This document shows positions 3,314 through 64,000 of a stretch of DNA of 64,000 nt, one piece after another. Source of the stretch: Alphaproteobacteria bacterium (lineage in GTDB: Bacteria; Pseudomonadota; Alphaproteobacteria; UBA11073); the NCBI GenBank assembly GCA_013289145.1, contig JABDAM010000002.1, positions 7,653 to 71,652 on the forward strand, given 5' to 3'. The stretch's first letter is position 1. Every line of letters starts with the position of its first letter. The position numbers and the translations under genes were made by a program. The notes below the pieces were generated by a model that searched no databases, was not told the origin of the DNA, and saw nothing but the letters and a program-made list of their open reading frames with translations.

Positions 3314-3320
3314 TAATATC

Positions 3321-5601: not shown

Positions 5602-5628
5602 TCAAAAGCAACGTCTCTATAAAAACGT

Positions 5629-6600
5629 ATGCGCCCCTTCGCCTCCCTCACCGAGCAGGAAATTCTCGCCCTCGCGATTTCGAATGAGGAGGACGATGCG
5701 CGGATTTATCAGTCTTTTGCGGAGCATGTGCGCGGGGATTATCCGGAAACGGCCAAGGTCCTGGACGGCATGGCAGGCGAAGAGGCCGGGCACCGCAATA
5801 TGTTATTTGATTTGTACCGCGAAAAATTCGGCGAGTTTTTACCGCTGATCCGCCGCGCGGACGTGCGCGGTTTTATCAAGCGCGATCCGATCTGGCTGGT
5901 GAAGACCACCAGCCTTGAAACAATCAGTGATTGCGTCGCGCGCATGGAACAGGAAGCGGGCGCGTTTTATCAAAAGGCGGCGGAAATTACGCGGGACGCT
6001 TCCATCCGCAAATTATTAAACGAATTGGCAGATGTTGAACTGCAACATGAAGATACCGCGCATAAACTCAGCGCGAAACATTTGAACGAAAACGCGCGCA
6101 CGTCGGAGAAGCAGACGCACAAGAAAAAATTTATCCTGCAATATATCCAGCCGGGTTTGATGGGCTTGATGGACGGATCGGTTTCCACCCTCGCGCCGTT
6201 ATTCGCGGCGGCATTCGCGACGCATCACAACTGGGAAACTTTCCTGATCGGTCTGGCGGCCGCGATCGGTGCCGGGATTTCCATGGGCTTTGCCGAAGCG
6301 CTGGCGGATGACGGTGAAATTTCCGGGCGCGGCAATCCGATTATTCGCGGCGTTTCATGCGGCGTGATGACGGCGATCGGCGGCCTGGGCCATACCTTGC
6401 CCTACCTGATCCCGGATGACGTGCCGAATGCTTTTGCGCTTGCGACAGGTATCGCCAGCGTTGTTGTGGCGATTGAACTCGGCGTCATCGCCTGGATCAA
6501 GGCGAAGTATATGGAAACCCCGTTCTGGCGCGCGGCGGTGCAGGTGGTGCTGGGCGGGCTGCTGGTATTCGCCGTGGGAATTTTAATCGGCAGCAGTTAA
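5629..6600 (+). CDS. mbfA: Erythrin-VIT1 membrane-bound ferritin-like iron exporter
   Basis: N-terminal rubrerythrin/ferritin-like half (EEAGH, ELQHE metal ligand motifs) fused to a C-terminal multi-TM VIT1/CCC1-like half. This is the architecture of MbfA in rhizobia. Confidence 0.8.
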   Translation: MRPFASLTEQEILALAISNEEDDARIYQSFAEHVRGDYPETAKVLDGMAGEEAGHRNMLFDLYREKFGEFLPLIRRADVRGFIKRDPIWLVKTTSLETISDCVARMEQEAGAFYQKAAEITRDASIRKLLNELADVELQHEDTAHKLSAKHLNENARTSEKQTHKKKFILQYIQPGLMGLMDGSVSTLAPLFAAAFATHHNWETFLIGLAAAIGAGISMGFAEALADDGEISGRGNPIIRGVSCGVMTAIGGLGHTLPYLIPDDVPNAFALATGIASVVVAIELGVIAWIKAKYMETPFWRAAVQVVLGGLLVFAVGILIGSS

Positions 6601-7689
6601 AAACTTTTCCCATTCCGCCGCGCGCGCGGTCCAAGTGTAATTTTCATTCGCCCATCGCACTTGCGCAGACAAACGCTGCTCAAGTTCGCCGCCGCGCCAC
6701 TGGCTTTGTAATTCCGTTATAATGCGTGTGAGCACAGCAGCGTATTCAGCGGCATGCGTATGAGCATCAGAAATGGCGGGCAATAAATGCCCATGACCGT
6801 TCAAAGTTTCCGGCAGCGCGCCGAGATCGGACGTCACCACGATGCATCCGGCGGCGAGGGCCTCCATCACCGCGATACAGGCGGTTTCAGCGAAGGTGTT
6901 GGGATAGGCCAAAATCAACGTCGCGCGCAAAGCTTCGGCCAAATCGGGTTGCGGCACGCTGCCGACATGCGTTACGCCGGACGACGCACGGGCGTTCGTA
7001 AGCAGGCGCGTGATCGTTTCGGGATTTTCCATTTCATATAACTTCATATCCGAAAAGATTTGCAGTTCGATGGAAGGATGCGCGGCGTGGATGGCGGGCC
7101 AGGCGAGCATCAGGCGGTCGAGGCCGCGAAAGGGCGTCGACGTATAGGCCAGGCGCGGCGCCGTGGATTTGCAGGCAAGGATAGGCAGGCCGTCAAACAG
7201 ATTTTCAAACGCGGGTGAAATCGCGTTGCGCAGAACCATGCGCGGCGTGGCGGTGAGCGCTGGGAAGGTTTTCAGATATTCCTCTTCCTGCCATTGACTG
7301 ACGAAAATCATGGCATCCCATGTTTTCAAAGTTTCCAAATCATGCAGCGGCTGGGCGGCGGGCTGGTCGGGCGCAAAATGCTGCCACAAAATCTTTTTCG
7401 CCTGCGGCGCGGCGGCGGCGAGTTGCAGGGGATATTCCACCGTCGAATTATTTAAATGCACAAAGGCATCTGCATCCGCAATCGCAGCAGCGGGAACATG
7501 ATTGCCAAGAGCATGTACGCCCGCGACTTCGTGCGGTTCGGCATTGTTGATGAAACTGACGCGCACGCCGCGCGCGGCCAGGGCCATCATCAGGTAACAG
7601 ACCGCCGATTGCGTCCCGCCGATCGGCCGATGCAGCGGCGCATCCACGCGGTAAGGCCAAGGCACTTGATCGATGAAAACGATATGCAT
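6583..7689 (-). CDS. Glycosyltransferase family 4 (Glycos_transf_1 type)
   Basis: C-terminal FAETACIAVMEALAAGCIVVTSDLGALPE matches the GT-B EX7E-type motif region. Confidence 0.8.
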   Translation of the reverse strand: MHIVFIDQVPWPYRVDAPLHRPIGGTQSAVCYLMMALAARGVRVSFINNAEPHEVAGVHALGNHVPAAAIADADAFVHLNNSTVEYPLQLAAAAPQAKKILWQHFAPDQPAAQPLHDLETLKTWDAMIFVSQWQEEEYLKTFPALTATPRMVLRNAISPAFENLFDGLPILACKSTAPRLAYTSTPFRGLDRLMLAWPAIHAAHPSIELQIFSDMKLYEMENPETITRLLTNARASSGVTHVGSVPQPDLAEALRATLILAYPNTFAETACIAVMEALAAGCIVVTSDLGALPETLNGHGHLLPAISDAHTHAAEYAAVLTRIITELQSQWRGGELEQRLSAQVRWANENYTWTARAAEWEKFLTAAD

Positions 7690-51042: not shown

Positions 51043-51126
51043 GCCCTCGTGGTGGAATGGTAGACGCGGTAGACTCAAAATCTATTGCCGCAAGGCGTGG
51101 GGGTTCAAGTCCCTCCGGGGGCACCA
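51043..51126 (+). tRNA. tRNA-Leu (anticodon CAA)
   Basis: Acceptor GCCCTCG/CGGGGGC, 3-bp D stem, anticodon stem GTAGA/TCTAT with loop CTCAAAA, long variable arm TGCCGCAAGGCGTG, T arm GGGGG-TTCAAGT-CCCTC, discriminator A, and encoded CCA. Confidence 0.9.
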
Positions 51127-51231
51127 AATTGAAGTTTTAGGACATCCGGTAAAATCCGGGATACCCGCAGAAAACCAAAAGAAATAACCGTTTTCTCTTC
51201 CTACACCGTCCGACGAAATCCGTTGACAGCC

Positions 51232-51290
51232 TGGGGCACAATGGGGCACATTTCAGCCTATGTGCCCCACCCGTAGCAAAATGTGCCCCA
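51232..51290. promoter_or_regulatory. Cluster of four GGGGCACA(T) motifs (two direct, two inverted) upstream of the integrase: putative arm-type sites
   Basis: tGGGGCACAatGGGGCACAT ... ATGTGCCCCa ... ATGTGCCCCa read directly. The same motif recurs at 57949-57969 and 58154-58181. Confidence 0.45.
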
Positions 51291-51291
51291 C

Positions 51292-52512
51292 ATGGCAAAA
51301 ACTGCCTCTTTAACGCAAGTTAAGATAAAAGCCGCTAAACCCAAGGCCACGCCTTACAAGTTGTATGATGCAAACGGGCTGTATGTTCAGATTCATCCCA
51401 ATGGCAGCAAATACTGGCGCTGGCGGTATCGCTTTAATGATGCAGAAAAAAAGATGGCCTTGGGCGTTTTTCCCGAAGTCAGCCTGACCGAAGCCCGCGA
51501 CAGGCGCGATGATGCCCGTCGCCTGTTACGCAGCGGTGTTGACCCTATGGCACAGAAACAAGCCATTAAGCGGGAAGCCCTCATTAACGCCGAAAACAAT
51601 TTTGAAGCCCTTGCCCGCGAATGGCATGACAAATTCCGCCAACGCTGGACGCCCGACCACGCCAGCCGCATTTTAATTTCATTGGAAAAGGATGTCTTTC
51701 CCTACATTGGAAAGCGGCCTATCGCCGAAATTGACACCCCAGAAATTATTACCGTGCTTCGCAAAGTGGAAAGCCGCGATGCATTGGATGTGGCTAAACG
51801 CATCCGCCAACGTATTGCCGCCGTTTTCACCTATGCCAAACAGACTAGCCGCGTGCGCGATAACCCTGCCCGCGATTTGGGCGGCGTGTTGAAAACCCGC
51901 AAACAACAACACCGCCTTGCGATTAAGCAGGATGAATTGCCGGAATTTCTAAAAGCCGTTGAAAATTATCAGGGTGATATTGTCACACGGCTGGCATTGC
52001 AATTTATGGTTTTGACTTTCGTCCGTACCAAAGAACTGTTGGGCGCCCGGTGGGATGAAATTGATTGGAAAGCAAAAATCTGGCGCGTCCCAGCCGAACG
52101 CATGAAAGTGCGCGAACCTCATATTGTCCCGCTGTGCAAACAGGCCATCACCATTTTGGAAGAAATAAAATCCCTGACTGGTGACTATGATTATATTTTT
52201 GCTTCCCGCACAGGTAAAACCTTATCCACCGGCACAATGATTTACGCCGTGTACCGCATGGGATTCCATAGTCGCGCCACCGTGCATGGCTTGCGCGGCA
52301 CCGCCAGCACAATCCTGAATGAAAACGGCTTCAACCCTGATGTAATTGAACGCCAACTTGCCCACCGTCCTGGCAATGAAGTCCGCGCAGCATATAACAG
52401 TGCCGAATATCTGCCTGAACGCCATAAAATGATGGCTTGGTGGGGAGAATATCTGAGAAAAGTATCTAGTAAAATCGAACCAACAACTGGAAAACAACGC
52501 AAAGGGGGTTAA
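51292..52512 (+). CDS. int: Tyrosine integrase, P4/CP4-57 type (DUF4102 N-terminus)
   Basis: YKLYDANGLYVQIHPNGSKYWRWRYRF...KKMALGVFPEVSLTEARDRRDDARRLL, catalytic region HGLRGTAST...ERQLAH...AYN. It lies directly 3' of the tRNA-Leu gene. Confidence 0.9.
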   Translation: MAKTASLTQVKIKAAKPKATPYKLYDANGLYVQIHPNGSKYWRWRYRFNDAEKKMALGVFPEVSLTEARDRRDDARRLLRSGVDPMAQKQAIKREALINAENNFEALAREWHDKFRQRWTPDHASRILISLEKDVFPYIGKRPIAEIDTPEIITVLRKVESRDALDVAKRIRQRIAAVFTYAKQTSRVRDNPARDLGGVLKTRKQQHRLAIKQDELPEFLKAVENYQGDIVTRLALQFMVLTFVRTKELLGARWDEIDWKAKIWRVPAERMKVREPHIVPLCKQAITILEEIKSLTGDYDYIFASRTGKTLSTGTMIYAVYRMGFHSRATVHGLRGTASTILNENGFNPDVIERQLAHRPGNEVRAAYNSAEYLPERHKMMAWWGEYLRKVSSKIEPTTGKQRKGG

Positions 52513-52520
52513 GAGGCACC

Positions 52521-53159
52521 ATGGATTTAACAGACTTTGAACTAGACTCGATGGATTATTGGCGGCTTTGTGATGAAGTTTCAGTTATACAAGCTATTCT
52601 TCTGCTGCTGGGTCATGACCCTGCGGGAAAATATAAATGGGCTGATGGCGATAGCAACAAGCGTCCCATAGGATATGATGCAGTTTCAGCCGCATTAAAA
52701 AATGCAATAATGTCAAAAACGCTTCCGGCAATTGAAGTGCCTATTGCTTATGATGCACACAATGAATTTTTTAATCCGGGTCCGTCCGACTTAATCAATT
52801 GGCATGAAACTAGGGTAAATATAATAGACTTAAAGACGTGGCTCTCTAATAGAGGAGTTAAATCAGGCTTTTTCTTTCCTGACAGTAAAAATATTCCAGA
52901 TTATCTGGACCCTAATAATCCATATTACGCTCCCAAATTAGCTGCTGCTGTAAAGGCGTGGCAAGCCGTTACCATAGATGAAGATAAATTGAAGGGGAAA
53001 ACACCCAAACAGGCAATGGATAAATGGCTTCGTGAAAATGGTAGTCATTACGGACTAACAAAAGACGAAGATGGTAGTCCTAACGAGCAAGGCATTGAAG
53101 ATGTATCCAAAATCGCAAATTGGAATACTAAGGGTGGCGCGCCTAAAACCCCTGGGTGA
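52521..53159 (+). CDS. Hypothetical island protein
   Basis: 212-aa AT-rich ORF 8 nt after int. The C-terminal KTPKQAMDKWLRENGSHYGLTKDEDGSPNEQGIEDVSKIANWNTKGGAPKTPG looks like a segment I associate with integrase-adjacent genes, but I cannot name a family. Confidence 0.5.
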   Translation: MDLTDFELDSMDYWRLCDEVSVIQAILLLLGHDPAGKYKWADGDSNKRPIGYDAVSAALKNAIMSKTLPAIEVPIAYDAHNEFFNPGPSDLINWHETRVNIIDLKTWLSNRGVKSGFFFPDSKNIPDYLDPNNPYYAPKLAAAVKAWQAVTIDEDKLKGKTPKQAMDKWLRENGSHYGLTKDEDGSPNEQGIEDVSKIANWNTKGGAPKTPG

Positions 53160-53364
53160 GTTATGCCAACCCGCCCACCTATTAAAAATAACTGAATTAT
53201 CAGTGTTTTTTTATGAACTATGCTGCGTTATCTGTTCAGGTCCTAAAAAAACCATAGGTAAGGTTACCAAATTTTAGGGATAAGTTTTCGTAACTTACCC
53301 ATCAATCTTCGCAAAAAAAATCGTGTCCTAATCCTTCCAGCATAACTCTGGAAAGGACGAAGAC

Positions 53365-53568
53365 ATGCAAAGCAATCCGAATACAAAAATCTTGCGCTTA
53401 CGGGAGGTTTTATCTCGCACCGGATTAAGTCGCAGCACAATTTATGAAATAGTCGGCAAGGGTACATTCCCCAAACCTATTAATCTTGCGCCGCGGGCGG
53501 TGGGATGGCTGGAATCTGAAATTGACACCTGGATTGCTGAACGCATTGCGGCCAGCCGCAGCAAATAG
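53365..53568 (+). CDS. alpA: AlpA family transcriptional regulator / excisionase-like HTH
   Basis: ILRLREVLSRTGLSRSTIYEIVGKGTFPKPINLAPRAVGWLESEIDTWI is the AlpA (prophage CP4-57 regulatory) signature. Confidence 0.8.
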   Translation: MQSNPNTKILRLREVLSRTGLSRSTIYEIVGKGTFPKPINLAPRAVGWLESEIDTWIAERIAASRSK

Positions 53569-53580
53569 ACACTTAGCACT

Positions 53581-54060
53581 ATGGGTCAGAAATTCCCCAA
53601 TCCGCGTTTGTTTAAGGTGAATTGGAATTACACCGTGGCGGATGCCGTCCGTTGCGCGAAAGTTCACGAAAACACCATCCGTAATTGGATAAAATGGGGA
53701 TTAAAGCCAATTGATAATAATCGCCCTATGCTGATTACAGGTGCCGAATTTATCAGGTTCTTAACGCAACAACGCGCCGCCAGAAAACGACCCTGCCAGC
53801 CGCACGAACTTTATTGCCTCCGCTGCCGCAAGCCGCAACGCCCGGCGGGCGATATGGCCGATTATTTGTACACCGCCCCAAATCGCGGTTGCCTGACAGC
53901 TATTTGTCCCGGCTGTGACGGGATGCTGAACAAACGAATGTCACCGTCTGACCTGCCCGCTGTTAAAGCTATTTTGAACATTTCTGAGCAACGTCATGAA
54001 CCACACATAGATGACCGTTCAACCCCTAGTCTGAATTGTAACTTCGAAAGGAAAAGATAA
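53581..54060 (+). CDS. HTH (excisionase/MerR-like) + Cys4 zinc-ribbon protein
   Basis: YTVADAVRCAKVHENTIRNWIKWGL is HTH-like. CLRC...CPGC gives four cysteines. The stop overlaps the next start (TAATG). Confidence 0.5.
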   Translation: MGQKFPNPRLFKVNWNYTVADAVRCAKVHENTIRNWIKWGLKPIDNNRPMLITGAEFIRFLTQQRAARKRPCQPHELYCLRCRKPQRPAGDMADYLYTAPNRGCLTAICPGCDGMLNKRMSPSDLPAVKAILNISEQRHEPHIDDRSTPSLNCNFERKR

Positions 54061-55097
54061 TGGCTCCGAAATACAACCCGCAGAACGAGCGCATTAAGCG
54101 CGAATATATGGAACATTTACGCCACGCCAAACGGCTAAGTGACCCCACCATTGATGGTGTTCTGAAATCCATACGGCGGTTTGAAGAATATACGGGGTTT
54201 AAGGATTTCAAACAATTTACTCGGCATCAGGCCATGAACTTTGTCCGTGACCTGCCCGAAACGCCCAATGCACGAGGCAATGGCGTTTTAAGTCGCCCCA
54301 CCGTCTATACAACCCTCATACAGTTGCGGACATTTTTTATCTGGCTGGCAGGAAAGCCAGGATATAAATCGCGTTTTGTATATTCGGATGCCGATTATTT
54401 TAACCTGACAGAAAAACAGGCGCGTATGGCAAAGGCTCCGCGTATGCAGCGCCAGCCGACGATGGAGCAGATTACCGCCGTGGTGCAATCTATCACGCCC
54501 GCCACCGATTTTGACCGCCGTGACCAGGCACTAATTGCTTTTGCGATTTTGACAGGTGCGCGGGATGGCGCACTGGCATCCATAAAACTGCGGCATGTGG
54601 ATTTGGAGCAAAGGCTGCTTTACCAAGATGCACGCGACGTCAAAACCAAGAATAGCAAAACCATCCCGACGTTCTTTTTCCCCATCGGCGGAGTTTTTGA
54701 ACAGATTGTCGTGGATTATATAGCATACCTGAAAAAAGATCGGTTGTGGGGTATGGATGACCCGTTATTCCCGGCCACCAAAATGGCAGTCGGTGAAAGC
54801 GGTGGGTTTGCAGCAGCAGGTTTTGACCGTCGGCATTGGACAACGGCCAGCCCCATTCGGGATATTTTCAAGAAACGCTTTGCTGGGGCGGGATTGCCTT
54901 ATTACAAGCCGCATACTTTCCGGCGTACGCTGGTGTTGTTAGGTGAAAAAATCTGCAAATCACCGGAAGAGTTTAAGGCATGGTCGCAAAACATCGGTCA
55001 CGACCATGTTTCCACGACCTTTAACAGTTACGGGAATATCGGCATGAACCGACAGGGAGAAATTATGCAGCAGCTTGGAAGTAATATCAGGATATAA
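54060..55097 (+). CDS. Tyrosine recombinase / site-specific integrase (second one on the island)
   Basis: Catalytic residues are in the expected order: TGARDGAL (R), HTFRRTL (HxxR), GHDHVSTTFNSYG (H...Y). Confidence 0.8.
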   Translation: MAPKYNPQNERIKREYMEHLRHAKRLSDPTIDGVLKSIRRFEEYTGFKDFKQFTRHQAMNFVRDLPETPNARGNGVLSRPTVYTTLIQLRTFFIWLAGKPGYKSRFVYSDADYFNLTEKQARMAKAPRMQRQPTMEQITAVVQSITPATDFDRRDQALIAFAILTGARDGALASIKLRHVDLEQRLLYQDARDVKTKNSKTIPTFFFPIGGVFEQIVVDYIAYLKKDRLWGMDDPLFPATKMAVGESGGFAAAGFDRRHWTTASPIRDIFKKRFAGAGLPYYKPHTFRRTLVLLGEKICKSPEEFKAWSQNIGHDHVSTTFNSYGNIGMNRQGEIMQQLGSNIRI

Positions 55098-55110
55098 ATC
55101 TAAGTTTAGA

Positions 55111-55140
55111 AAAATCAGGTGATTTGCACCACCTGATTTT
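55111..55140. terminator. Bidirectional hairpin terminator between convergent genes
   Basis: aaaATCAGGTGatttgcacCACCTGATttt: an 8-bp perfect stem with flanking A/T runs. Confidence 0.55.
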
Positions 55141-55165
55141 ATCACCCAATTTTAATGATGAATGA

Positions 55166-55369
55166 TTAATGTTTAAACCATTCGCTGTTATTAATGTGAA
55201 AGGCAGCTCTTACCAATTCAAATCTTGGATGATTTCCACAATGATTACATGGGGGAAAACGTTTTCCCTTAATCACGGTAACCTCATGCTCTTGTGTGTG
55301 ACGCCTATCATGAATAACTTTGTAAATACCTGACCTTGGTACCTCATCTCCTGGTTTATATTGAGCCAT
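55166..55369 (-). CDS. Small hypothetical protein (67 aa) with CxxC
   Basis: Start MAQYKPGDEVPRSGIYKV is preceded by AAGGAGAAGCT. The sequence contains PPCNHCG. The longer ORF-track start lacks an RBS. Confidence 0.5.
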   Translation of the reverse strand: MAQYKPGDEVPRSGIYKVIHDRRHTQEHEVTVIKGKRFPPCNHCGNHPRFELVRAAFHINNSEWFKH

Positions 55370-55691
55370 AGCTTCTCCTTTCCCGGAATCCGGGTTGTTA
55401 AGAAAGTAATTGGCTTGACTGGGAAGGCACACATTCGATAGAATATGAGTCTGAACTGGATACGCAGCCAATTACGATGATGCGTGTCTAAAGGAACGCT
55501 CCCCTGGCCTGCAAAGTTTTGGGGGGCTTTTCTTTATCAGCAGATAAAATAACATACCTTGTTATGCTTATGCAATAAAAAACGTTTCGAATCAGTGGGT
55601 TAGTGATTCGTTAAGTGTTTAAATAATCCCCTTCCCTCTTTCTAATTTCCAAGTAGACTACGCATGTCATTCACCCATTTGGGCGAGTGAT

Positions 55692-55898
55692 GGGGCGTAG
55701 TAACCCCTTGTCATAGCGGTTGGCACAACCGCATTGGTGCCGTTCCTAAACAGACTGGCATCAGAGTGCCGCTTCTCAGCTTTGGCTGGGGAGCGGTGGT
55801 GTATGTCCAGCCCGCAAGGGTAAAGGCCATCGCGCCGTTTTCTATGACAACGGTTACTAATCCCCAGTCGCCAGAGTGGACACTTTGGCGGCTTTTTT
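55692..55898 (+). promoter_or_regulatory. Candidate structured 5' leader / cis-regulatory RNA ending in an intrinsic terminator
   Basis: 55692-55716 (ggggcgtagtaaccccttgtcatag) pairs with 55842-55865 (ctatgacaacggttactaatcccc), enclosing GC-rich local hairpins that include a GCAA-capped stem. It ends with the stem cgccagag/ctttggcg plus gcttttttc at 55869-55898, 25 nt before the OMP start. Confidence 0.3.
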
Positions 55899-55922
55899 CT
55901 TATCAACCTTGGGGGAAAACCG

Positions 55923-56564
55923 ATGAATAAAATTTACTCACTGGCGTTTGTAGCCGCCTTGTTGGCTGTCACCACTGCCACAGCACACGCAGACGATTGG
56001 ACAACCAATCTGCGTCCTTATGTGGGCGCTGATTATCAATTCACTCACCTGAAATACAATAATGATTATGGGGTTGGTGGCGGCTTGGCACTAGACGGCA
56101 ATACGATTTTAGAACGTGGCCTGAACGGCGGCAATGTTCACGTAGGCGTGCGCCCGGCGCAGTATTGGGGCGCAGAGTTGGGTTATTTTGACACTACGAA
56201 TGAAAGCAAAAATATCGCCGCTGGGACGACGGTTGGACCCGGCACGGTTGCCTTGGTGCCACTGACAGGCAAAGTGCAAATGCATGGCGCAACGCTGGAT
56301 GCGATGGGCTACCTGCCTGTGATTGCCAACCGGGTTGATTTAATCGCCACCACCGGGCTTGCATGGGACCATATTAAAGCGGGCTTTGGTGGCCTCGGCA
56401 GCGTCAGCAAAAGTGAGATTGATTGGCGGATTGGTGGCGGCGCGCAGGTGAATTTATTACCCAATTTGAATCTGCGCGGTCTGGTGCGTTACCAAACGGC
56501 GGATTTCAAAAACATCGCCGATAGCGCGTGGGTTTACACCGCCGGGCTAAATTACAGTTTTTAA
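55923..56564 (+). CDS. Outer-membrane beta-barrel protein (OMP_b-brl / Omp25-like)
   Basis: Signal peptide MNKIYSLAFVAALLAVTTATAHA, alternating-hydrophobicity strands, and the C-terminal signature GLNYSF. Confidence 0.75.
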   Translation: MNKIYSLAFVAALLAVTTATAHADDWTTNLRPYVGADYQFTHLKYNNDYGVGGGLALDGNTILERGLNGGNVHVGVRPAQYWGAELGYFDTTNESKNIAAGTTVGPGTVALVPLTGKVQMHGATLDAMGYLPVIANRVDLIATTGLAWDHIKAGFGGLGSVSKSEIDWRIGGGAQVNLLPNLNLRGLVRYQTADFKNIADSAWVYTAGLNYSF

Positions 56565-56573
56565 TTTTCTTCA

Positions 56574-56606
56574 CCGCCGCCAGTCAAAAGCTGGCGGCTT
56601 TTCTTT
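56574..56606 (+). terminator. Rho-independent terminator after the OMP gene
   Basis: CCGCCAGtcaaaagCTGGCGG followed by cttttcttt. Confidence 0.6.
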
Positions 56607-56630
56607 CCCATCAAACCAAGAAGCAAAACC

Positions 56631-57017
56631 ATGCGCATTATCTCTATTATCGGCCTCGTAGCCCTTGGCGGCTGCATTACCGCCTGTTCCAGCATTATTG
56701 AGGGACGTACTCAGCAGATTGTCATTAATACCAATCCGCCCGGCGCAAGCTGCCAGTTAGTCCGCAATGGCGCGACTATCGCCACCGTTATTGATACTCC
56801 CAGCGGCGTGAATGTGGACAAAACAAAATACGATATTGAGATTAGATGCAACAAACGCGGCTATCAACAAGCTACTTACCTAAACCATTCCGGTACGGCG
56901 GGTGCGACGGTTGGCAACATTATTCTTGGTGGCGGCATCGGTTGGGCAATCGACTCTGCTTCTGGCGCCGACAATAAATACGACAGTCCAGTGAATATCA
57001 CGCTGGCTAAAAAGTAA
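56631..57017 (+). CDS. Lipoprotein with PEGA-like domain
   Basis: Lipobox LGGC in MRIISIIGLVALGGCITAC. INTNPPGASCQLVRNG resembles a PEGA domain, and the C-terminus is Gly-rich. Confidence 0.6.
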   Translation: MRIISIIGLVALGGCITACSSIIEGRTQQIVINTNPPGASCQLVRNGATIATVIDTPSGVNVDKTKYDIEIRCNKRGYQQATYLNHSGTAGATVGNIILGGGIGWAIDSASGADNKYDSPVNITLAKK

Positions 57018-57038
57018 ACAAGTTTTGAAAAAGGGATG

Positions 57039-57605
57039 CTACCGGATATTTATACCTGAAACAATTTCATTGCCGATAGAATCAAACGCCTTTGAAAGAG
57101 TTGTTTGAAGGTCTCGGCAGAAAAGAACCAGCGAGATATGATGCACTGTTTCGAGAAAAATATCTGGCGCGCTCGTAAAGGGACACGAAAAATCCATAAC
57201 CTTATATAATTCTATTAATGATGTAAGTTTCTGGCAATCTGTTTCTATTAACTTATGCGTGAAATCTATATTATGGAGGGAGTGAGCAAAAACATTGCGG
57301 ATGTCCTTTATAAGAAGAAGGTCTCTATAAACTGCGCCCTCAATAAGCGACATTGCATAAGCAATTCTGATTTTTGCAGAGAATGTGGCTAAAACTGCAT
57401 TGCCGCCGTCAAATATATTTTTGCTATCATCCTTATTTAGGTCACGGAAATGTGTACGCAAAAGTTGTTCGAGGCCATATTCTAGATATGAGGCACCCAT
57501 TATGGTGACGGTTCTGGCATCTTTTCCTTTAAGGTCATAAATAATCGCTGTCATTTCCTCCGATGTAGGAAAATTTTTAAGAAGCGTTTTTGATGAAGTA
57601 GTCAT
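57039..57605 (-). CDS. Hypothetical protein, MtlR/MltR-like helical domain
   Basis: IMGASYLEYGLEQLL...FDGGNAVLATFSAKIRIAYAMSLIEGAVYRDLLLIKDIRNVFAHS resembles the mannitol-repressor-like family (IRNxFAH). Tentative. Confidence 0.5.
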   Translation of the reverse strand: MTTSSKTLLKNFPTSEEMTAIIYDLKGKDARTVTIMGASYLEYGLEQLLRTHFRDLNKDDSKNIFDGGNAVLATFSAKIRIAYAMSLIEGAVYRDLLLIKDIRNVFAHSLHNIDFTHKLIETDCQKLTSLIELYKVMDFSCPFTSAPDIFLETVHHISLVLFCRDLQTTLSKAFDSIGNEIVSGINIR

Positions 57606-57613
57606 TGGTTTTT

Positions 57614-57814
57614 TTACATATTTCCTGGCTTACTATCGACTAATTTAAAATCGAAGTAATCTATACAGCCGTCCCACGAACGAGCCTCTTTCCCGCATTT
57701 CTCACAATTAAAACTGCCTTTATCTCTGGCAGGGAAATTCATATAGGTACATTCATATTTCTCCCCACAATGAGGACATTCAAATTCGGTTTTTCCTTTT
57801 TCCCAGGTAGCCAT
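57614..57814 (-). CDS. Small zinc-ribbon protein
   Basis: CPHCGEKY...CEKCGKE are two CxxC pairs. It ends 8 nt upstream of the MtlR-like gene. The start is either 57814 (MATWEKG) or 57847. Confidence 0.45.
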   Translation of the reverse strand: MATWEKGKTEFECPHCGEKYECTYMNFPARDKGSFNCEKCGKEARSWDGCIDYFDFKLVDSKPGNM

Positions 57815-57948
57815 CCTATCAATATGGCATAGAGCAATTATTGGCACCAGTATCTCCTAATTTAAACATACTTTTCAATATGATTAGAATGAGATAGATT
57901 CATATTTCGGTGCGCGTCTGGCCTCAAATTCACTTTGCCAAACTTGGT

Positions 57949-57969
57949 GGGGCACATTTGGGGGCACAT
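57949..57969. promoter_or_regulatory. Two direct GGGGCACAT motifs at the right end of island 1
   Basis: gGGGGCACATttgGGGGCACATt read directly, about 55 nt before the degenerate tRNA 3' remnant. Confidence 0.45.
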
Positions 57970-58024
57970 TAGAAATCTATATTATAAAAAGTCAAGGAAA
58001 TGCTATGTTTCCGGCTTTAATATA

Positions 58025-58043
58025 GGTTCCTCCGGGCCAAATT
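58025..58043 (+). repeat. Degenerate copy of the tRNA-Leu 3' end (attR of island 1 / attL of island 2)
   Basis: ggttcctccgggccaaatt versus tRNA ggttcaagtccctccgggggcaccaaatt. Similarity then continues through 58230 with the sequence downstream of the intact tRNA (ttttaggacatcc..., ccgtccgac.aaatcc.ttga.agcctg). Confidence 0.65.
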
Positions 58044-58183
58044 AAGGTTTTAGGACATCCCGTGAAGTCCGGAATACCCGCCGCAAACGGATAAGAACCA
58101 GCATTTTCTTTTCCGATACCGTCCGACAAAATCCATTGATAGCCTGAAGCACAATGGGGCACATCTTGGACCATGTGCCCCGC

Positions 58184-58230
58184 CTGACAAAAACCACCTA
58201 TTTAACGCAAGTTAAAATAACAGCGGCTAA
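58184..58230 (+). pseudogene. 5' remnant of a second P4-type integrase (start codon mutated, truncated after about 15 codons)
   Basis: ctgacaaaaaccacctatttaacgcaagttaaaataacagcggctaa parallels int1 atggcaaaaactgcctctttaacgcaagttaagataaaagccgctaaa (LTKTTYLTQVKITAAK versus MAKTASLTQVKIKAAK). Similarity stops at 58230. Confidence 0.6.
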
Positions 58231-58296
58231 GGTATTTTGGATGCCCACAGCGGCGATATAATCTGCCTCATATTCGTTGAATATCGGGAGCGCAAA

Positions 58297-60933
58297 ATGA
58301 TACTTAAAACGATTACGCCTGAATTAATTACGGCTTATTGGTTTTGCCCGCGCAAGGCTTTTTTGTTAATGCGCGGCGAAAAAGGCGCGGCCAGGCATGA
58401 ATATGTGGAAGTGATGGAGCGGCAGGCCTTGGCAAACCGTAAAAAAAATTTGGAAATTTCTAAAACTGGCGCGCCGGGAATCTGCGAACTTTTTTTGGCA
58501 ACCAGTACCCACAACATCGGCAAAGATCAAAAAATCCAATTGGCGGCGATGGCATATCTGCTGACGAAATCATCGGGCAAAACGATTACATCCGGCACAA
58601 TCATGAATGCGGCCGGCACGTTTTTTCAGGTTAAATTAACGGCCTTGATCGCGGAAATCGCGCCGCTGGTTGAAACGCTGGAAAGCTGGGTGAAAAAACC
58701 GCCACTCGAAGCGCCAGGAATTATTCTGATACGGCATTGCCAGATTTGCCCTTTCCGTCAGGCTTGTTTCGACCAGGCAAAAATCGAAGATAATCTCAGC
58801 CTGCTCGACCGCGTCACGCCCAAGGTGATGAAAAAATATAAAAAGCAAGGCATCTTTACCGTTCGCCAGTTATCTTATCTTTACCGCCCGCGGCGCGAGC
58901 GCAAAAGAAGCAAACCGGCGCCGGTGAAATTTGACGTGACGTTACAGGCTTTGGCGTTGCGGGAGCAGAAAATCTATGTGCAGGAAACGCCCATTATTCC
59001 GGCGCATCCGGTTGAAATCTTCATTGATTTCGAAGGCTTGCCCGATCAGGAATATGATTATCTCATCGGCATGATGGTTTCTGAAAACGGGCGCGCGGAA
59101 TGTCATTCTTTCTGGGCGGATACGGCGCAGGATGAAAAAACCATGTTTGAAAATTTCTTACATGCCGCCGCAAAATATCCTGATGCGCCCATTTATCATT
59201 ACGGACATTATGAATTCAAAAGCCTCATTCGAATTGGGAAGAAATATAACCTGGATATTGAAACGGTCAAAAAGCGGTTGATGAACGTCAGCTTTTTTGT
59301 ATTCGGCAAGATTTACTTCCCGGCGCGTTCCAACAACCTGAAAGATATCGGTAACATCATCAGCGCTGTGTGGACAGAACCAGGGGCTTCGGGACTGCAT
59401 AGCATTGCCTGGCGGATGCAGTGGGACGTATCGCAAAATGTCCGGTTCAAACAAAAATTGCTGACTTATAATGCGGAGGATTGCGCTGCGCTGCGTATTT
59501 TGCTCGTCGAACTGCGCAGCATCAGCGCGGCCGCTGAAACCCGCGCGGACGTGGATTTTGCGGGGCGCATCAAGCCAACCGCCAGTCCGGCGGGTCAGGC
59601 TATTCATCATTCACTGGAGCAAATTCTGCGTTCCGCCCATGCGGAATATCACAAAAACCGCATCGGCATCCGGCAGCGGGACAAGGATGACAAACCCGTT
59701 CATATCGGCGGCACGTTTGGCCACACAGGTGTGCGGCGGATCATTCCCAAACCGGACAGAGTTGTTCATGTCAAACCCATAACCCGCTGCCCCAAGCATC
59801 CAAATGAAATTCTGCAACCGGATGAAGATTGCAGTCATACCGTGATCGATCTGGAAATGATGCCGCATGGTTTTCAAAAAGTGATTACAAAATATACCGG
59901 CAAATCCGGCTATTGCGGCCGGTGTTACCGCCGTTACTTGCCACCGCGGATTAAGCAACTGTCCAACCAGCTGTTCGGCCACAACATGCGCGCCTGGGTG
60001 GTGTTTCAGCGGGTTGTCCTGCGCCTGTCCTACAGCGCGATATCGCAGGTTTGCGAAGAATTGTTCCGCGAACCTGTCACCGACGGCACCATTGGAAATT
60101 TCATGAAAGATTTCGGCAATCATTATGCCAAAACCGAAGAGATTTTGTTTCAGAAAATCTTCGCCAGCCCTTTTATGCATGTCGATGAAACCCGCATCAG
60201 CGTTCAGGGCGCGGATCATTATGTCTGGGTTTTCACCAATGGCACGCACGTCGTTTTTCGTCTGACAGAAACGCGCGAATCCGGCGTCATCCAAGAATTA
60301 CTGAAAAATTATAAAGGTATTTTGATTTCCGATTTTTACGGCGGCTATGATGCCTTTGCCTGCCGCCAGCAAAAGTGCCTGGTGCACCTTATCCGCGATT
60401 TGAACGATGAATTATGGAAAAACCCGCATCATCCGGCGCTTGAGGCTTTTGTGGGCGCGGTGAAAGAATTGTTGACGCCCTTGATGCAGGATGTACAAAC
60501 CCACGGCTTGCGCCGCCGCCATTTGCGCCGGCATGAAAAACGCGTGGCGGCATTCTATCAAAACACCATTGATAACCAAACCTATAAAGACGAAACGCTC
60601 GGGCGCTATCAAAAGCGCTTTTCGCGTTACCGCGACAGCCTGTTCCGCTTTTTGCAGGAAGATCATATCCCCTGGAACAATAACATGGCTGAGCGCGCCA
60701 TTCGCCATCTGGCGATCCAGCGCAAGATTTCGGGGAGTTTTTATAAAGGCCCCATGATTTCCTATCTGCGTCTGCTCGGCATCGCGCAGTCGTGCCGGTT
60801 TCAGAAAAAGTCATTTCTGGGCTTTATGCTTTCCGGCAAAAAAGACGTAGATGAATTCCATCCACCCCGGCGGCAGCCCATTTCCGAACCGGCTGGCGGC
60901 GGCGTTAATGCCGTTACTGCCCAGCAGGGGTAA
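58297..60933 (+). CDS. Fusion protein: Cas4/RecB-like (TM0106-type) nuclease + RNase H-like domain + IS66-type zinc-ribbon/DDE transposase
   Basis: N-terminal part: WFCPRK...HCQICPFRQAC (C...CX2CX5C), IDFEGLPDQEYDYLIG, YHYGHYE, YNAEDCAAL. C-terminal part: RCPKHP...CGRCYRRY, HVDETRISV, ISDFYGGYDAF, WNNNMAERAIRH. It is one uninterrupted frame, with gggagcgcaaaATG at 58297. Confidence 0.75.
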   Translation: MILKTITPELITAYWFCPRKAFLLMRGEKGAARHEYVEVMERQALANRKKNLEISKTGAPGICELFLATSTHNIGKDQKIQLAAMAYLLTKSSGKTITSGTIMNAAGTFFQVKLTALIAEIAPLVETLESWVKKPPLEAPGIILIRHCQICPFRQACFDQAKIEDNLSLLDRVTPKVMKKYKKQGIFTVRQLSYLYRPRRERKRSKPAPVKFDVTLQALALREQKIYVQETPIIPAHPVEIFIDFEGLPDQEYDYLIGMMVSENGRAECHSFWADTAQDEKTMFENFLHAAAKYPDAPIYHYGHYEFKSLIRIGKKYNLDIETVKKRLMNVSFFVFGKIYFPARSNNLKDIGNIISAVWTEPGASGLHSIAWRMQWDVSQNVRFKQKLLTYNAEDCAALRILLVELRSISAAAETRADVDFAGRIKPTASPAGQAIHHSLEQILRSAHAEYHKNRIGIRQRDKDDKPVHIGGTFGHTGVRRIIPKPDRVVHVKPITRCPKHPNEILQPDEDCSHTVIDLEMMPHGFQKVITKYTGKSGYCGRCYRRYLPPRIKQLSNQLFGHNMRAWVVFQRVVLRLSYSAISQVCEELFREPVTDGTIGNFMKDFGNHYAKTEEILFQKIFASPFMHVDETRISVQGADHYVWVFTNGTHVVFRLTETRESGVIQELLKNYKGILISDFYGGYDAFACRQQKCLVHLIRDLNDELWKNPHHPALEAFVGAVKELLTPLMQDVQTHGLRRRHLRRHEKRVAAFYQNTIDNQTYKDETLGRYQKRFSRYRDSLFRFLQEDHIPWNNNMAERAIRHLAIQRKISGSFYKGPMISYLRLLGIAQSCRFQKKSFLGFMLSGKKDVDEFHPPRRQPISEPAGGGVNAVTAQQG

Positions 60934-61132
60934 AAAAGCGGCTTAAAGCGGCGTAAAAATCACCCGCGGCGCACGCCAAACCGGCTTAATAGCCGTCAAA
61001 AACAATTTTAAATTGTATTGCAGTTCTGAAACCACGCGCGGCGGTGGGTATTTGCGCGTTTTATTTTAACCCAGCTGGGCAGTTACTGGTTTTTGTTTCT
61101 GCAAGTATTTGCGAATCTCTTACGCTTAAAGA

Positions 61133-62593
61133 ATGGACTTAAAAATATTTTTTATTTTATGCGCGAATACAACGGAACTTTGCCGTCAGCTGGAGGAGTC
61201 GCAAGCGATTATCCACTCGCAGCAAGTAAAACTCGTGCATCAGGATATGGTAATCCAGGATCTGGCCGAACAGATCAAAAAACTGAAACGCAGCCAGGAA
61301 TTAACCAGCGCGATCAGCAGCAAACCGCCTTCCAGCGACGGTTTGAAAAAACCCGTCCGCGTCATGAGCCTGCGCCGCACCGAACACAATGCCAACGGCG
61401 GCCAAACGGGCCACAGGGGCGAAACCCTGCGCCAGGTTGAAACACCGGATATCATCCAGCAACATTGCGCCGAACAATGCGCCCATTGTCAGGCCAAACT
61501 GACCGAGGCCATGGTGACCAGCCATGAAGCGCGCCAGGTTTTTGATATTCCCAAACCCCGATTGGAAGTCACGGAACATCAGGCGATGATTTACGCCTGC
61601 GCATCCTGCCGCCGCGTGACCAAGGGTGTTTTCCCCATGGACGTGACCGCGCCCGCGCAATATGGCCCGCGGGTGCGGGCGGCGGCGGTTTATTTGAACG
61701 CTGGACAATTAATTCCGGAAGACCGCGTGGCGGAAACCATGCGCGATCTCATGAACATCAACCTGTGCCCCGCAACCATTGCCGCGATGGGTACGCGCAA
61801 AGCAGATGAATTCCGGCCGCTTGCCGATTATATCGCAGCGCGGGTTGCGGCGGCGCCCGTCCGGCATCTTGACGAAACGGGTTTCCGGATCGGCGGCAAA
61901 ACGCAATGGCTGCATGTGGCGGCGACTGCGGATCTGACGGCTTACCGTATTTCCATGCATCGCGGAACGTTGCCGCAGAATATTAAAAGCGGCGTAGTCG
62001 TACACGATCATTGGAAACCTTATTATACCATGGAAGGCGTAACGCATGCCTTATGCAATGCCCATCACCTGCGCGAACTCAAAGCCCTGATCGAGATCGA
62101 AAAAGAATCCTGGGCACGGCATATGGAGCGGTTATTGCTCTATGCCCACCGTGTCGTCCGCCTGGCGCAAGAGAAAAACCAGATTACACTACCCGATCCG
62201 ATTTACCGGCGTATCTCGCGAATCTATGACCGGATTGTTGAATACGGCCTGACCTTCCATGAACGGCAAGAAGCGTTATTCCAAAAGGGAAGCCGCGGGA
62301 AAAAGCCGCGCCGGATCGGGCATAACCTGTTACTGCGTTTCCGTGACTATAAAGCTGACGTTCTGCGCTTTGCGGCGGATTTCAATATTCCCTTTACGAA
62401 TAATCAGGCTGAGCGTGATATCCGGATGATGAAGGTGAAGCAAAAAATCTCCGGCGGTTTCCGCTGCCGCGCGGGCGCGCAGAGTTTTATCACCCTTAAA
62501 TCCGTGATGGCCACGGCGCGGAAACAATCCTGGAATATGCTTGAAACCCTAAGCCAGTCGCTTTTGGAACTGATGCCACGCCTTGCGAGCTGA
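61133..62593 (+). mobile_element. IS66-family transposase gene (single-ORF, ISBst12-like subgroup); element ends not resolved
   Basis: Coiled-coil N-terminus, SSKPPSSDGLKKP, zinc ribbon CAHC...CASC, and DDE core HLDETGFRIGG / VHDHWKPY / TNNQAERDIRMMK. No tnpA/tnpB-like ORFs lie upstream. Confidence 0.85.
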
Positions 62594-62687
62594 TTTTAAT
62601 GAGTTGAATTTGAGTAGGATCAATATACGCGCCTGGGTGTTGCTACAATTGAATATTTCATGATTATACACCCTACCATATTATCTT

Positions 62688-62718
62688 CCGGCTGGGATTT
62701 TAAAAGCTTCCCAGCCGG
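62688..62718. terminator. Perfect 10-bp hairpin downstream of the minus-strand orphan gene
   Basis: CCGGCTGGGAttttaaaagctTCCCAGCCGG. It lacks a clear U-tract on either strand, so terminator function is uncertain. Confidence 0.35.
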
Positions 62719-62727
62719 GTTTCCAAA

Positions 62728-63162
62728 TTACATGCCCGGAGTATGAACACCTGTTTGATTCAATTCAGACGGCAAAACAAATTTTGCCTCGCCCTTCCAT
62801 AAATTAACGGCTTTAATATTGCCGAATTCAATTTGTTTGTCTTTGGAAAAGCCAGCAACATTTAAGCGCACATGATCGATCATGCCGACCTCTGCAATGG
62901 ACAGGACATGAGTGCCAAGTATGGCATAGGTATCAAATCCTCCCACATAGGCTGAATTTATTTTTTCTATTGCGGCTTCCAAGCTTTCCAAACCCTGTTT
63001 GAAAGACATGCCCAACGCATAGTTGCGCGAACCATCATCCGTTTCCTGGATGGAAATCTTAAAAATCATGGGAACATAAGTACGGTTTGATTGGTTATAA
63101 GCGACTGCGGCGAAATGCCGCGGCGCTGCCAAAAGTTCTTGCAATTCTCCGGGTTTTACCAT
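62728..63162 (-). CDS. Hypothetical protein (island 2 cargo)
   Basis: AT-rich ORF. I chose the start at MVKPGELQELL; the longer ORF-track N-terminus looks non-coding. No motif recognised. Confidence 0.4.
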   Translation of the reverse strand: MVKPGELQELLAAPRHFAAVAYNQSNRTYVPMIFKISIQETDDGSRNYALGMSFKQGLESLEAAIEKINSAYVGGFDTYAILGTHVLSIAEVGMIDHVRLNVAGFSKDKQIEFGNIKAVNLWKGEAKFVLPSELNQTGVHTPGM

Positions 63163-63486
63163 TGTGCCCGTCTGGTCCAGGCAGGGGGGCATGATTAAAA
63201 GAAATAGGGTGGTAACGGCCGGATGAGGTATCGTAAGCGATAAGAGCAAACATTTTAAGTTTCCCTATTTGGTGTGGGATTGAAAATGGTGTCATATTAA
63301 TAGCCTTGCGAACTGGATTGCAAGGAAAATGAATACTTGCAAGACGGGCGCTTGGCGAAATCCCCCTTTTCGGGTCCGGGGAAGGGGAATTTTTTCATGC
63401 AAGTATTTTTTTTCTTTACTTTCAGAAATATTTTCTTTTATGCTGAATGCCTATAATCAAACCAACACTTAAGACAGGGATACAAT

Positions 63487-63807
63487 ATGTTAACGCAGGC
63501 AAAACGTAAAATTTTCAAGACGAATGGCAACGAGTTCCACCTTAGATTAGTTGAGGTGAAGTCAGGCAGTGAATTGGACAAGATTCGTCAGGAATTGATT
63601 GAAAAGGGTGCAGACTTTGAAAAAGAAGATTTTCTGCATTTAGCAAATCGGAGCTTTCCTAGTTTAGTTACTAAAAGTGGTAGCCATTATGGACTTGTCG
63701 AGAATATTTCAAAAGCTCTTGAGATTTTAGATGATGTGAAACAGCCCATGACGAAAGACGATTGGCTCTATAAGTTTAATCTTGATAATAAGATTATTCT
63801 ACATTAG
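63487..63807 (+). CDS. Hypothetical 106-aa protein (island 2 cargo)
   Basis: AT-rich ORF with agggatacaatATG upstream. No motif recognised. Confidence 0.4.
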   Translation: MLTQAKRKIFKTNGNEFHLRLVEVKSGSELDKIRQELIEKGADFEKEDFLHLANRSFPSLVTKSGSHYGLVENISKALEILDDVKQPMTKDDWLYKFNLDNKIILH

Positions 63808-63884
63808 AAAGAACCTTAGAACTTAACCCGAAGGCGCTTGAGCACATTTTCAAGCCCAGCCGTTGGGTCGGGCATACCGATGAA

Positions 63885-64000
63885 ATGAAAGAAGTATGGG
63901 CGCATGTGCCGAAGAACCATAAAAATGGATTTGATTTTGATGATGCTTATGAAGAGGCCCAGATAGAGACAATCTTGCCGGCGGCAAAGAAAGAGATTTT
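63885..64000 (+). CDS. Possible partial ORF running off the right edge
   Basis: The frame is open from 63792 to the window end (..MKEVWAHVPKNHKNGFDFDDAYEEAQIETILPAAKKEI). The first ATG is at 63885, with no convincing RBS. Confidence 0.2.
   Translation, partial: MKEVWAHVPKNHKNGFDFDDAYEEAQIETILPAAKKEI

Follow-up and report, generated by a model that had tools for sequence, protein, structure and literature searches.

The 64,000-nt stretch of DNA analysed here (hereafter the window) comprises positions 7,653 to 71,652 of contig JABDAM010000002.1 from an Alphaproteobacteria bacterium (assembly GCA_013289145.1), and constitutes a chromosomal stretch in which NCBIfam profiles identified rpoD, sucA and ilvI-type genes. 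Within a tRNA-Leu-associated island, the window harbors a solitary copy of a gene that joins a TM0106-family nuclease module to an IS66-type transposase. This gene is an uninterrupted open reading frame (ORF) on the forward strand, which may start at a TTG codon (58237) or at an ATG codon (58297) located seven bases 3' of a Shine-Dalgarno-like GGGAG, and which terminates with the stop codon at 60931-60933. The 878-residue product encoded from the ATG begins with the TM0106/TIGR03491 module, which consists of a Cas4-like iron-sulfur (Fe-S) domain followed by a PolB/DnaQ-like 3'-5' exonuclease domain. A linker specific to the family connects this module to a zinc ribbon, and an IS66-type DDE core completes the protein. 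The coordinates of these and other features are compiled in Table 1.

Table 1. Features of the fusion gene and its surroundings, in window coordinates.
Feature	Position	Strand	Evidence or remarks
Repeat of tRNA-Leu 3' end and P4-type integrase start	58026..58230	+	72.6% identical to 51109-51338
TM0106-module/IS66-transposase fusion protein	58297..60933	+	ORF call, Pfam, NCBIfam, protein-cluster search
Cas4-like Fe-S domain, predicted catalytically dead, internally deleted	58297..58875	+	PADLOC Cas4, AlphaFold2/Foldseek of canonical homolog, residue census, comparison with helicase-linked TM0106 proteins
Putative Fe-S ligands C17, C148, C151, C157	58345-58347, 58738-58740, 58747-58749, 58765-58767	+	
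Deletion junction I62/C63	58480..58485	+	Alignment, residue census, strand count in models
PolB/DnaQ-like 3'-5' exonuclease domain (Pfam RNase_H_2)	59002..59526	+	Pfam, residue census, Foldseek, Majorek 2014
Candidate DEDDy residues D244, E246, E306, Y391, D395	59026, 59032, 59212, 59467, 59479	+	
Fused-family linker DVDFA..P...IH..LE.IL.SAHAEY.KNRI, then disordered residues 452-481	59527..59751	+	Junction query, pLDDT
Zinc ribbon C498, H501, C540, C543	59752..59940	+	Residue census, model, NF033517
IS66-type DDE core with helical insertion domain; D630 (60184), D679 (60331), E799 (60691)	59971..60801	+	Pfam, residue census, Foldseek
23-nt inverted repeat pair 60913-60935 / 61064-61086, 128-bp spacer	60913..61086	.	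Repeat search
Conventional single-ORF IS66 transposase (DUF6444 + zf-IS66 + DDE_Tnp_IS66), separate from the fusion gene	61133..62593	+	Pfam, NCBIfam

Profile searches identified both halves of the protein. The NCBIfam model for the TM0106 family (TIGR03491) scored 190.4 bits (cut-off 97.45) over model positions 120-457 of 462, and the model for IS66 family transposases (NF033517) scored 195.3 bits (cut-off 180), with coverage starting at residue 475. The AlphaFold2 model of the full-length window protein (mean pLDDT 82.5) revealed three folded regions, and Foldseek returned ISCth4, the exonuclease region of family-B polymerases and Cas4 from Cas4-Cas1-Cas2 complexes (probability 1.0 for Cas4) as its neighbours in the Protein Data Bank (PDB). 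A first-pass annotation, made from the sequence alone, had proposed that a nuclease, an RNase H-like fold and a transposase are fused in this ORF. The Pfam and NCBIfam matches and the conservation of the junction in homologs bear this out, and all the motifs quoted by the annotation are present in the product where it had placed them. Of the profile matches that it anticipated in a single chain, RNase_H_2 and DDE_Tnp_IS66 were recovered, Cas_Cas4 was weak and below its cut-off, and zf-IS66 had no Pfam match.

The same annotation had raised the possibility of an assembly chimera. A disordered linker (residues 452-481, pLDDT <50) does separate the two halves and, prior suspicion aside, is the one feature compatible with adjacent TM0106 nuclease and IS66 transposase genes having been merged by chimeric assembly, a frameshift error in sequencing or the loss of a stop codon. 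The identical gene is nonetheless present in an independent Logan assembly (run SRR8427201), on a contig that ends at window position 60997, a break that fits a repeat beginning there. Furthermore, both Pfam domains occur in all 120 homologs among the matches listed, most of which span 90% of the query or more, junction and linker keep one conserved position throughout the family, and the linker and zinc ribbon present dN/dS values of 0.16-0.42. An artefactual merger is hence vanishingly improbable. Chimera and frameshift were ruled out on the independent assembly, the two-domain homologs and the conserved junction, and the 878-residue fusion is a genuine single chain.

Searches against 5.8 billion protein clusters, with matches taken at the 90% identity level, outlined a large family of fused proteins, thereby revealing elsewhere the domain order that the first-pass annotation had suggested looking for. 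The fusion protein returned 1,455 cluster matches; PF03050 and PF13482 co-occur in the 120 homologs mentioned above, and the matches listed mostly cover 90-99% of the query at 42-56% identity, with a few covering 79-88%. A scan of one genome per species in 185,579 species, performed with an alignment query (a single-protein query gave no match), identified 369 confirmed fusion loci in bacteria and archaea. Bacterial carriers include Deltaproteobacteria, Planctomycetota (among them the complete genome of Ca. Brocadia pituitae), Cyanobacteria, Acidobacteriota, Chloroflexota, Nitrospirota and Ignavibacteria, and archaeal carriers include Methanoperedens, ANME-1 and Thermoplasmatota. A query restricted to the junction (residues 395-560) matched 134 clusters at the 50% identity level, and in every long protein that it found the junction was located at approximately residues 430-610 of about 900. 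This constant position fits a single fusion event, and the fusion is ancient, with a single constant junction. In one Syntrophobacteraceae contig (L026), two divergent fused members, 34% and 48% identical to P0002, are arranged head to tail (1009-3507 and 3929-6685).

Members of this family are named in databases as 'predicted RecB family nuclease', 'TM0106 family RecB-like putative nuclease' or 'IS66 family transposase'. The first-pass annotation had stated that no IS66 subgroup with this architecture had been described. In the searchable literature, which does not encompass ISfinder, this holds save for a table published in 2012 that lists, without comment, four 'transposase IS66: pfam03050 + COG2251' genes in Ca. 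Solibacter usitatus (PMC3469429). The architecture is not confined to the window, whose protein belongs to a large family already represented in databases.

The exonuclease domain matched Pfam RNase_H_2 (PF13482) over residues 241-405 (E 2.7e-21). Its candidate active-site residues lie in the motifs IDFEG (D244, E246), YHYGHYE (E306) and YNAEDC (Y391, D395), and a census of key positions in 115 full-length homologs revealed that they are conserved in all of them, with either Glu or Asp at position 306. Foldseek searches identified the exonuclease domains of family-B polymerases as structural neighbours (probability 1.0), with the S. thermophilus DnaQ domain also among them. The PF13482 domain of COG2251 has been assigned to a 3'-5' exonuclease clade, and COG2251 also carries tandem AAA/helicase domains (Majorek 2014, PMC3985635); general surveys describe COG2251 as a PD-(D/E)xK domain plus a 3'-5' exonuclease-like domain (PMC3985635, PMC3424549). 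Judging from its conserved residues, the domain looks intact and active. The assignment of this region to an RNase H-like module of the TM0106 family was hence correct as to the family (TIGR03491) and has to be amended as to the enzyme, which is a PolB/DnaQ-type 3'-5' exonuclease and not an RNase H.

In the N-terminal domain, the Cas4-type cysteine pattern recognized by the first-pass annotation could be resolved into four ligands, C17 in the WFCPRK motif and C148, C151 and C157 in HCQICPFRQAC, all of which are invariant or nearly so in the census. The motif I His corresponds to H34. PADLOC Cas4 models matched residues 7-157 (E 4e-8), the Pfam Cas_Cas4 match was weak (E 4e-3, 17.6 bits against a cut-off of 22.7) and the Cas4 model TIGR00372 scored below its cut-off (24 bits versus 65). 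When the N-terminal domain was compared with PDB chains by sequence profile, no meaningful match was returned. Because this search was uninformative, the fold was established with AlphaFold2 and Foldseek: the model of the N-terminal domain of a canonical homolog (pLDDT 86.5) matched Cas4 and Dna2 structures (7mi5, 8d3l, 4r5q) with E-values of about 1e-6 and TM scores of 0.56-0.64.

The active site of this domain was compared with that of long TM0106 proteins, using the plasmid-borne Pseudomonas luteola WP_150345624 (1,136 aa) and Rhizobium daejeonense WP_163897287 (1,097 aa) as references for the ancestral state. We refer to these proteins as helicase-linked, a label that rests on the tandem AAA domains of COG2251 (PMC3985635) and not on profiling of their C-terminal halves. 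Both of the helicase-linked proteins examined retain intact GxxDF, YEVxDTK and QLxxY motifs. In the fused clade, 103 of 109 homologs carry the motif I His, 71% carry the motif II Asp (29% lack it) and 86% carry a Glu, but the position of the catalytic Lys is never occupied by Lys. The aligned motif III reads YEPxLVV instead of YEVxDTK, with hydrophobic (Leu/Val-type) residues at D-x-K, and the Tyr of QxxxY is lost; both changes were observed in all 115 homologs. As far as sequence motifs can tell, the PD-(D/E)xK active site is dead across the clade, with the fold and the Fe-S cysteines retained.

The window copy departs further from this pattern. Approximately 45 residues are missing between I62 and C63 that are present in all of the other 114 full-length homologs, and this segment encompasses strands beta1-beta2 and the motif II Asp of the canonical model and aligns with the motif II region of the helicase-linked proteins. 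The Cas4-like sheet comprises three strands in the window model versus six in the canonical one. The converse scenario, an insertion of about 45 residues in all the other homologs, was rejected because the segment corresponds to core strands and aligns with the helicase-linked motif II region. The first-pass annotation had cautioned that it could not locate a D...ExK triad and that the nuclease might be degenerate. This caveat was well founded: D-x-K and QxxxY are lost clade-wide and motif II is deleted in this copy, which explains why no triad could be located. The nearest relative among the matches listed is only 52-56% identical to the window protein. The ability of the window copy to still move is uncertain.

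These results bear directly on an analogy with Tn7 that the first-pass annotation had put forward, in which the PD-(D/E)xK domain would cut the 5' (non-transferred) strands, as TnsA does, and the DDE core would cleave and join the 3' ends, as TnsB does. The N-terminal fold of canonical members is indeed Cas4/Dna2-like, fusions and pairings of PD-(D/E)xK domains with DDE transposases exist in Tn7-like elements, and part of the active site persists, as reflected in the frequencies of the motif I His, the motif II Asp and the Glu given above. Second-strand cleavage is nevertheless left unsupported by the loss of D-x-K and of the QxxxY Tyr in every homolog, both of them retained in helicase-linked proteins, by the systematic absence of Lys at the equivalent position and of the motif II Asp in a sizeable fraction of the clade, and by the absence from the window protein of the two strands bearing that Asp. 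The dissimilarity extends to other components. TnsA is an active restriction-enzyme-like endonuclease and TnsB a Mu/rve-type transposase, whereas the fusion protein combines a dead PD-(D/E)xK domain with a DDE core of the IS66 type; partners resembling TnsC, TnsD or TnsE are absent, and neither Pfam nor NCBIfam returned a TnsA or rve match on the fusion protein. What is shared with TnsA plus TnsB, and with TnsA-TnsB fusions, is the combination of a PD-(D/E)xK-fold domain with a DDE transposase. We therefore regard a TnsA/TnsB-like cut-and-paste enzyme as highly improbable.

Downstream of the exonuclease domain, the linker falls outside both NCBIfam models and is followed by the zinc ribbon, whose sequence (RCPKHP...CGRCYRRY) begins at nt 59788, in the same frame and essentially where the first-pass annotation had located it (about nt 59790). 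C498, C540 and C543 are invariant, and position 501 is occupied by His in 92 homologs and by Cys in 10. No Pfam zf-IS66 match was obtained for this region, which in the model forms beta-hairpins (residues 507-540) and which lies within NF033517 coverage. The DDE core matched Pfam DDE_Tnp_IS66 (PF03050) over residues 559-815 (E 1.4e-37, 130 bits against a cut-off of 23.1), with its catalytic triad, conserved in all 115 homologs, located in the motifs HVDETR (D630), ISDFYGGYD (D679) and NNNMAERAIRH (E799). The motif-by-motif correspondence to the adjacent IS66 transposase that had been noted by eye was reproduced by alignment (22% identity over 302 aa, E 2e-10), with the three motifs in register with the HLDET, VHDHW and NNQAER motifs of the neighbour. 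The closest solved fold is that of the ISCth4 transposase (IS256 family; E 2.5e-7 with Foldseek), a copy-out-paste-in enzyme. On the evidence of its conserved triad, the DDE core appears to be active.

The comparison with single-ORF IS66 elements (ISBst12-type), such as the neighbour at 61133-62593, situates the fusion protein within this family. Each is encoded by one ORF that passes the NF033517 cut-off, with no tnpA/tnpB, and has a helical insertion in its DDE core, the motifs HxDET / D / NNxAER and an upstream zinc ribbon, a candidate one in the fusion protein; ORFs for tnpA and tnpB, the accessory genes of classical IS66, were found neither beside the gene in the window nor in related loci. 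Unlike these elements, the fusion protein carries about 470 additional N-terminal residues instead of the DUF6444/leucine-zipper region, lacks a Pfam zf-IS66 match, and was not found to be associated with GTAA-type repeats or an 8-bp duplication. The observation that a nuclease module replaces the usual IS66 N-terminus was thus accurate, the region upstream of the zinc ribbon consisting of the TM0106 module and the linker. By profile and by its putative DDE triad the fusion protein is a member of the IS66 family, and it departs from the IS66 norm in its ends, accessory genes and N-terminal region.

The N-terminal half has its counterpart in the helicase-linked TM0106 proteins (TIGR03491 / COG2251), which share the succession of a Cas4-like Fe-S domain and a PolB/DnaQ-like exonuclease with DxEG, HYxxYE and YNxxD motifs. 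They differ in their length of about 1,100 aa, in their defence-like gene context and in their intact D, D-T-K and QLxxY residues, whereas in the fused clade the C-terminal half is a DDE transposase and the PD-(D/E)xK site is seemingly dead. On the Rhizobium daejeonense plasmid NZ_CP048424 (113925-120875; locus L151), the 1,097-aa TM0106 protein, with intact nuclease motifs, is encoded beside TIR-domain, WYL-domain and AAA ATPase genes, a neighbourhood that looks like an anti-phage defence locus. The nearest functional analogies may be found in Cas4-Cas1 fusions and complexes and in Cas2-DnaQ, in which a Cas4-fold Fe-S domain or a DnaQ-fold exonuclease is likewise physically coupled to a DNA integrase. 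The resemblance would be one of function only: the integrase is here a DDE transposase and not Cas1, and the Cas4-like domain is dead. Neither the stretch 52000-64000 nor the six proteins profiled with NCBIfam revealed any cas genes, and the window was not scanned for CRISPR repeats.

Evidence for mobility was provided by an all-versus-all comparison of the fetched loci. Pairs from different taxa present 87-94% nucleotide identity over only 2.75-2.95 kb, a stretch that comprises the ORF with 14-125 nt upstream and 25-170 nt downstream and that is embedded in unrelated flanks; examples are a proteobacterial metagenome-assembled genome (MAG) and the complete Brocadia pituitae genome (89%), and Ignavibacteriales and Brocadia (87%). 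Members of a soil subfamily (P0041/P0055) share a fixed right end, ...CCGGAAGG(A/G)CAC, and then continue into three different flanking sequences. Internal stops or frameshifts interrupt at least 7 of 80 loci, the protein clusters are rich in fragments, with contigs mostly of 3-4 kb, and the fused genes often lie in islands or adjoin other IS66 elements. These results show that a unit of about 2.75-2.95 kb moves horizontally between phyla, as mobile elements do. All domains are under purifying selection, dN/dS being 0.23-0.47 in the Cas4-like domain, 0.10-0.28 in the exonuclease, 0.16-0.42 in the linker and zinc ribbon and 0.16-0.25 in the DDE core; these values were obtained exclusively from 10 intact close pairs, pooled values being distorted by frameshifted pairs.

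Two further arrangements were observed around fused genes. Directly upstream of the gene in the soil subfamily lies an opposite-strand gene corresponding to a zinc ribbon and DDE_Tnp_IS66 start fragment (weak, E 0.009; L103, 3-761 on the minus strand; also L104-L107, L112, L133, L140 and L144), and in this subfamily, as in the window, the fusion gene is hence beside another IS66-type element. The P0115 gene is located in a conserved mobile-element backbone (AEP-type primase-helicase, TraI_2, DUF3987), an arrangement present in seven contigs from different metagenome samples (L082-L088).

In the window, the tRNA-Leu gene (51043-51126) is followed by a P4-type integrase gene (51283-52512), and about 7 kb later comes a repeat of the tRNA-Leu 3' end and integrase start (Table 1). 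Two islands appear to be arranged in tandem at tRNA-Leu (51043-58230), the first of which contains a second tyrosine recombinase (54060-55097), small regulators and outer-membrane-like ORFs. The truncation of the second P4-type integrase just upstream of the fusion gene, reported in the first-pass annotation, was confirmed with tblastn: its first 19 codons remain at 58175-58231, similarity ends at 58231, and the remainder was not found within the window. This point, 66 nt before the start of the fusion gene, is taken as the left boundary of the inserted unit. Insertion of this unit probably caused or accompanied the truncation of the second island's integrase gene.

The opposite side of the gene is occupied by a 174-bp unit bounded by the 23-nt inverted repeats GTTACTGCCCAGCAGGGGTAAAA / TTTTAACCCAGCTGGGCAGTTAC (2 matches found against 0.01 expected by chance). 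The final seven codons of the fusion ORF and its stop codon lie in the left arm. This unit could be a remnant resembling a miniature inverted-repeat transposable element or represent the ends of the neighbouring insertion sequence; in either of these cases, the fusion protein may have lost its native C-terminus to a replacement. Three 12-nt direct repeats (AAAAGCGGCTTA / TAAAGCGGCGTA / CAAACCGGCTTA) lie immediately 3' of the stop codon (60934-60988). The conventional IS66 element (61004-62657) presents weak candidate ends AATTTTAAATTGTA / TACAATTGAATATT, a palindrome (CCGGCTGGGA...TCCCAGCCGG, 62689-62726, ending ...AAATTAC) resembles the arms of the 23-nt repeat, and the pentamer ATGCC, which may be left over from a duplication, occurs at both 60908-60912 and 62727-62731.

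Considered jointly, the data are probably best explained by a distinct, widespread and uncharacterised single-ORF IS66 clade in which the N-terminal region has been replaced by the TM0106 helicase-nuclease module, acting as an accessory. The DDE core would carry out the chemistry of cleavage and strand transfer, and the TM0106 module would act as a built-in accessory processor of DNA ends. In this scheme, the dead Fe-S domain would hold single-stranded DNA or DNA ends as a non-catalytic clamp and feed the 3' end to the active 3'-5' exonuclease, which would trim or otherwise process the transposition intermediate. The module might substitute for the accessory proteins TnpA and TnpB of classical IS66 elements, and for their N-terminal zipper. 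Its N-terminal position in long TM0106 proteins suggests that it may be a portable unit for the handling of DNA ends.

Several points weigh against this explanation, the foremost being the ends of the element. IS66 elements are bounded by terminal inverted repeats of about 20-30 bp, typically starting with GTAA, and generate an 8-bp target duplication. Matching the upstream region of every locus against its reverse-complemented downstream region, and aligning ends within subgroups, did not establish canonical IS66 ends (long GTAA inverted repeats) across the family. Only cores of 7-9 nt, or imperfect and partly subterminal inverted repeats of 26-33 nt, were seen, such as the short inverted core ATTTTGT...ACAAAAT in cyanobacteria and ATTGCTTG...CAAGCAGAT in archaea, and the inverted-repeat search did not return any terminal pair of about 20-30 bp flanking 58231-60970 in the window. 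The scan of some 80 loci for 8-bp target duplications beside inverted ends gave three weak matches, at chance level. The search for terminal repeats and duplications envisaged in the first-pass annotation consequently provided no general end rule, just some boundaries and short cores. Additionally, no genome with several near-identical copies was found, copy number seems low, and only 2 of 72,556 plasmids in PLSDB carry the fusion. A canonical plasmid-borne member is that of Calothrix PCC 7716 (AP025022, 27502-30207). We know of no DDE transposase that needs a 3'-5' exonuclease, a role for the exonuclease in transposition is purely what we infer, and the deletion in the window copy may leave this particular enzyme inactive.

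One subgroup presents a right end reading GTAAGCG on the complementary strand, with fragments resembling the opposite end abutting both ends. These fragments lie at approximately 3910-3960 and 6800-6870 in the proteobacterial MAG (L010) and 3900-3960 and 6800-6860 in Ca. Brocadia pituitae (L014), and the junctions are hairpin-like on both sides (CAGCCGAC...spacer...GTCGGCTGAAACC). They could be remnants of tandem copies or circle junctions, or reflect insertion into the element's own ends. Multicopy genomes had also been considered on account of identical proteins on several contigs (P0115, P0009, P0163, P0149), and were rejected because these contigs represent the same locus in different samples.

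The lack of detectable target duplications and clear terminal repeats, and the occurrence of a single copy at the same locus across samples, would also be expected of a domesticated or exapted gene, that is, of a host or island-borne DNA-processing or defence enzyme whose DDE core serves as a nuclease or integrase. The strong purifying selection seen in every domain, neighbours that are often defence-like or island genes (SNF2 helicase, DUF3670, ATPase_2, primase-helicase) and the presence of the parent TM0106 module in helicase-nucleases beside TIR, WYL and AAA genes point in the same direction. However, the high cross-phylum nucleotide identity is limited to the ORF and short flanks in unrelated surroundings, the distribution is patchy and rare, about one in ten loci is interrupted, PADLOC matches were restricted to generic Cas4 models, and the window copy itself interrupts an integrase gene. 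On balance, domestication is rather unlikely. A more specific proposal is that the fused clade represents a new kind of transposase in which integrase chemistry is coupled to built-in end trimming, as Cas4 or DnaQ do for Cas1-Cas2. The dead Fe-S domain would guide a single-stranded 3' tail into the exonuclease, and the ends would be set by trimming to a protein-protected boundary instead of by exact cleavage at long terminal repeats. This could explain the scant non-coding ends, the lack of long terminal repeats and the absence of detectable target duplications, but we consider it distinctly less probable than domestication.

IS66 is a large family whose transposition mechanism is poorly understood, and we know of no DDE transposase to which a 3'-5' exonuclease is covalently attached along with a degenerate Cas4-like Fe-S domain. 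Widespread but uncharacterised, the fused clade is a variant of this family that surveys of mobile elements miss, as its members are inconsistently annotated, some as 'IS66 family transposase' and others as 'TM0106 family RecB-like putative nuclease'. The significance of the solitary and partly deleted window copy alone is modest, and it is the family that makes an interesting object of study. With hundreds of members across bacteria and archaea, among them anammox bacteria, ANME and Methanoperedens archaea and cyanobacteria, the clade constitutes a natural experiment on the accessory DNA-processing activities that DDE transposases can recruit, and it parallels the end processing performed by Cas4 and DnaQ in CRISPR adaptation.

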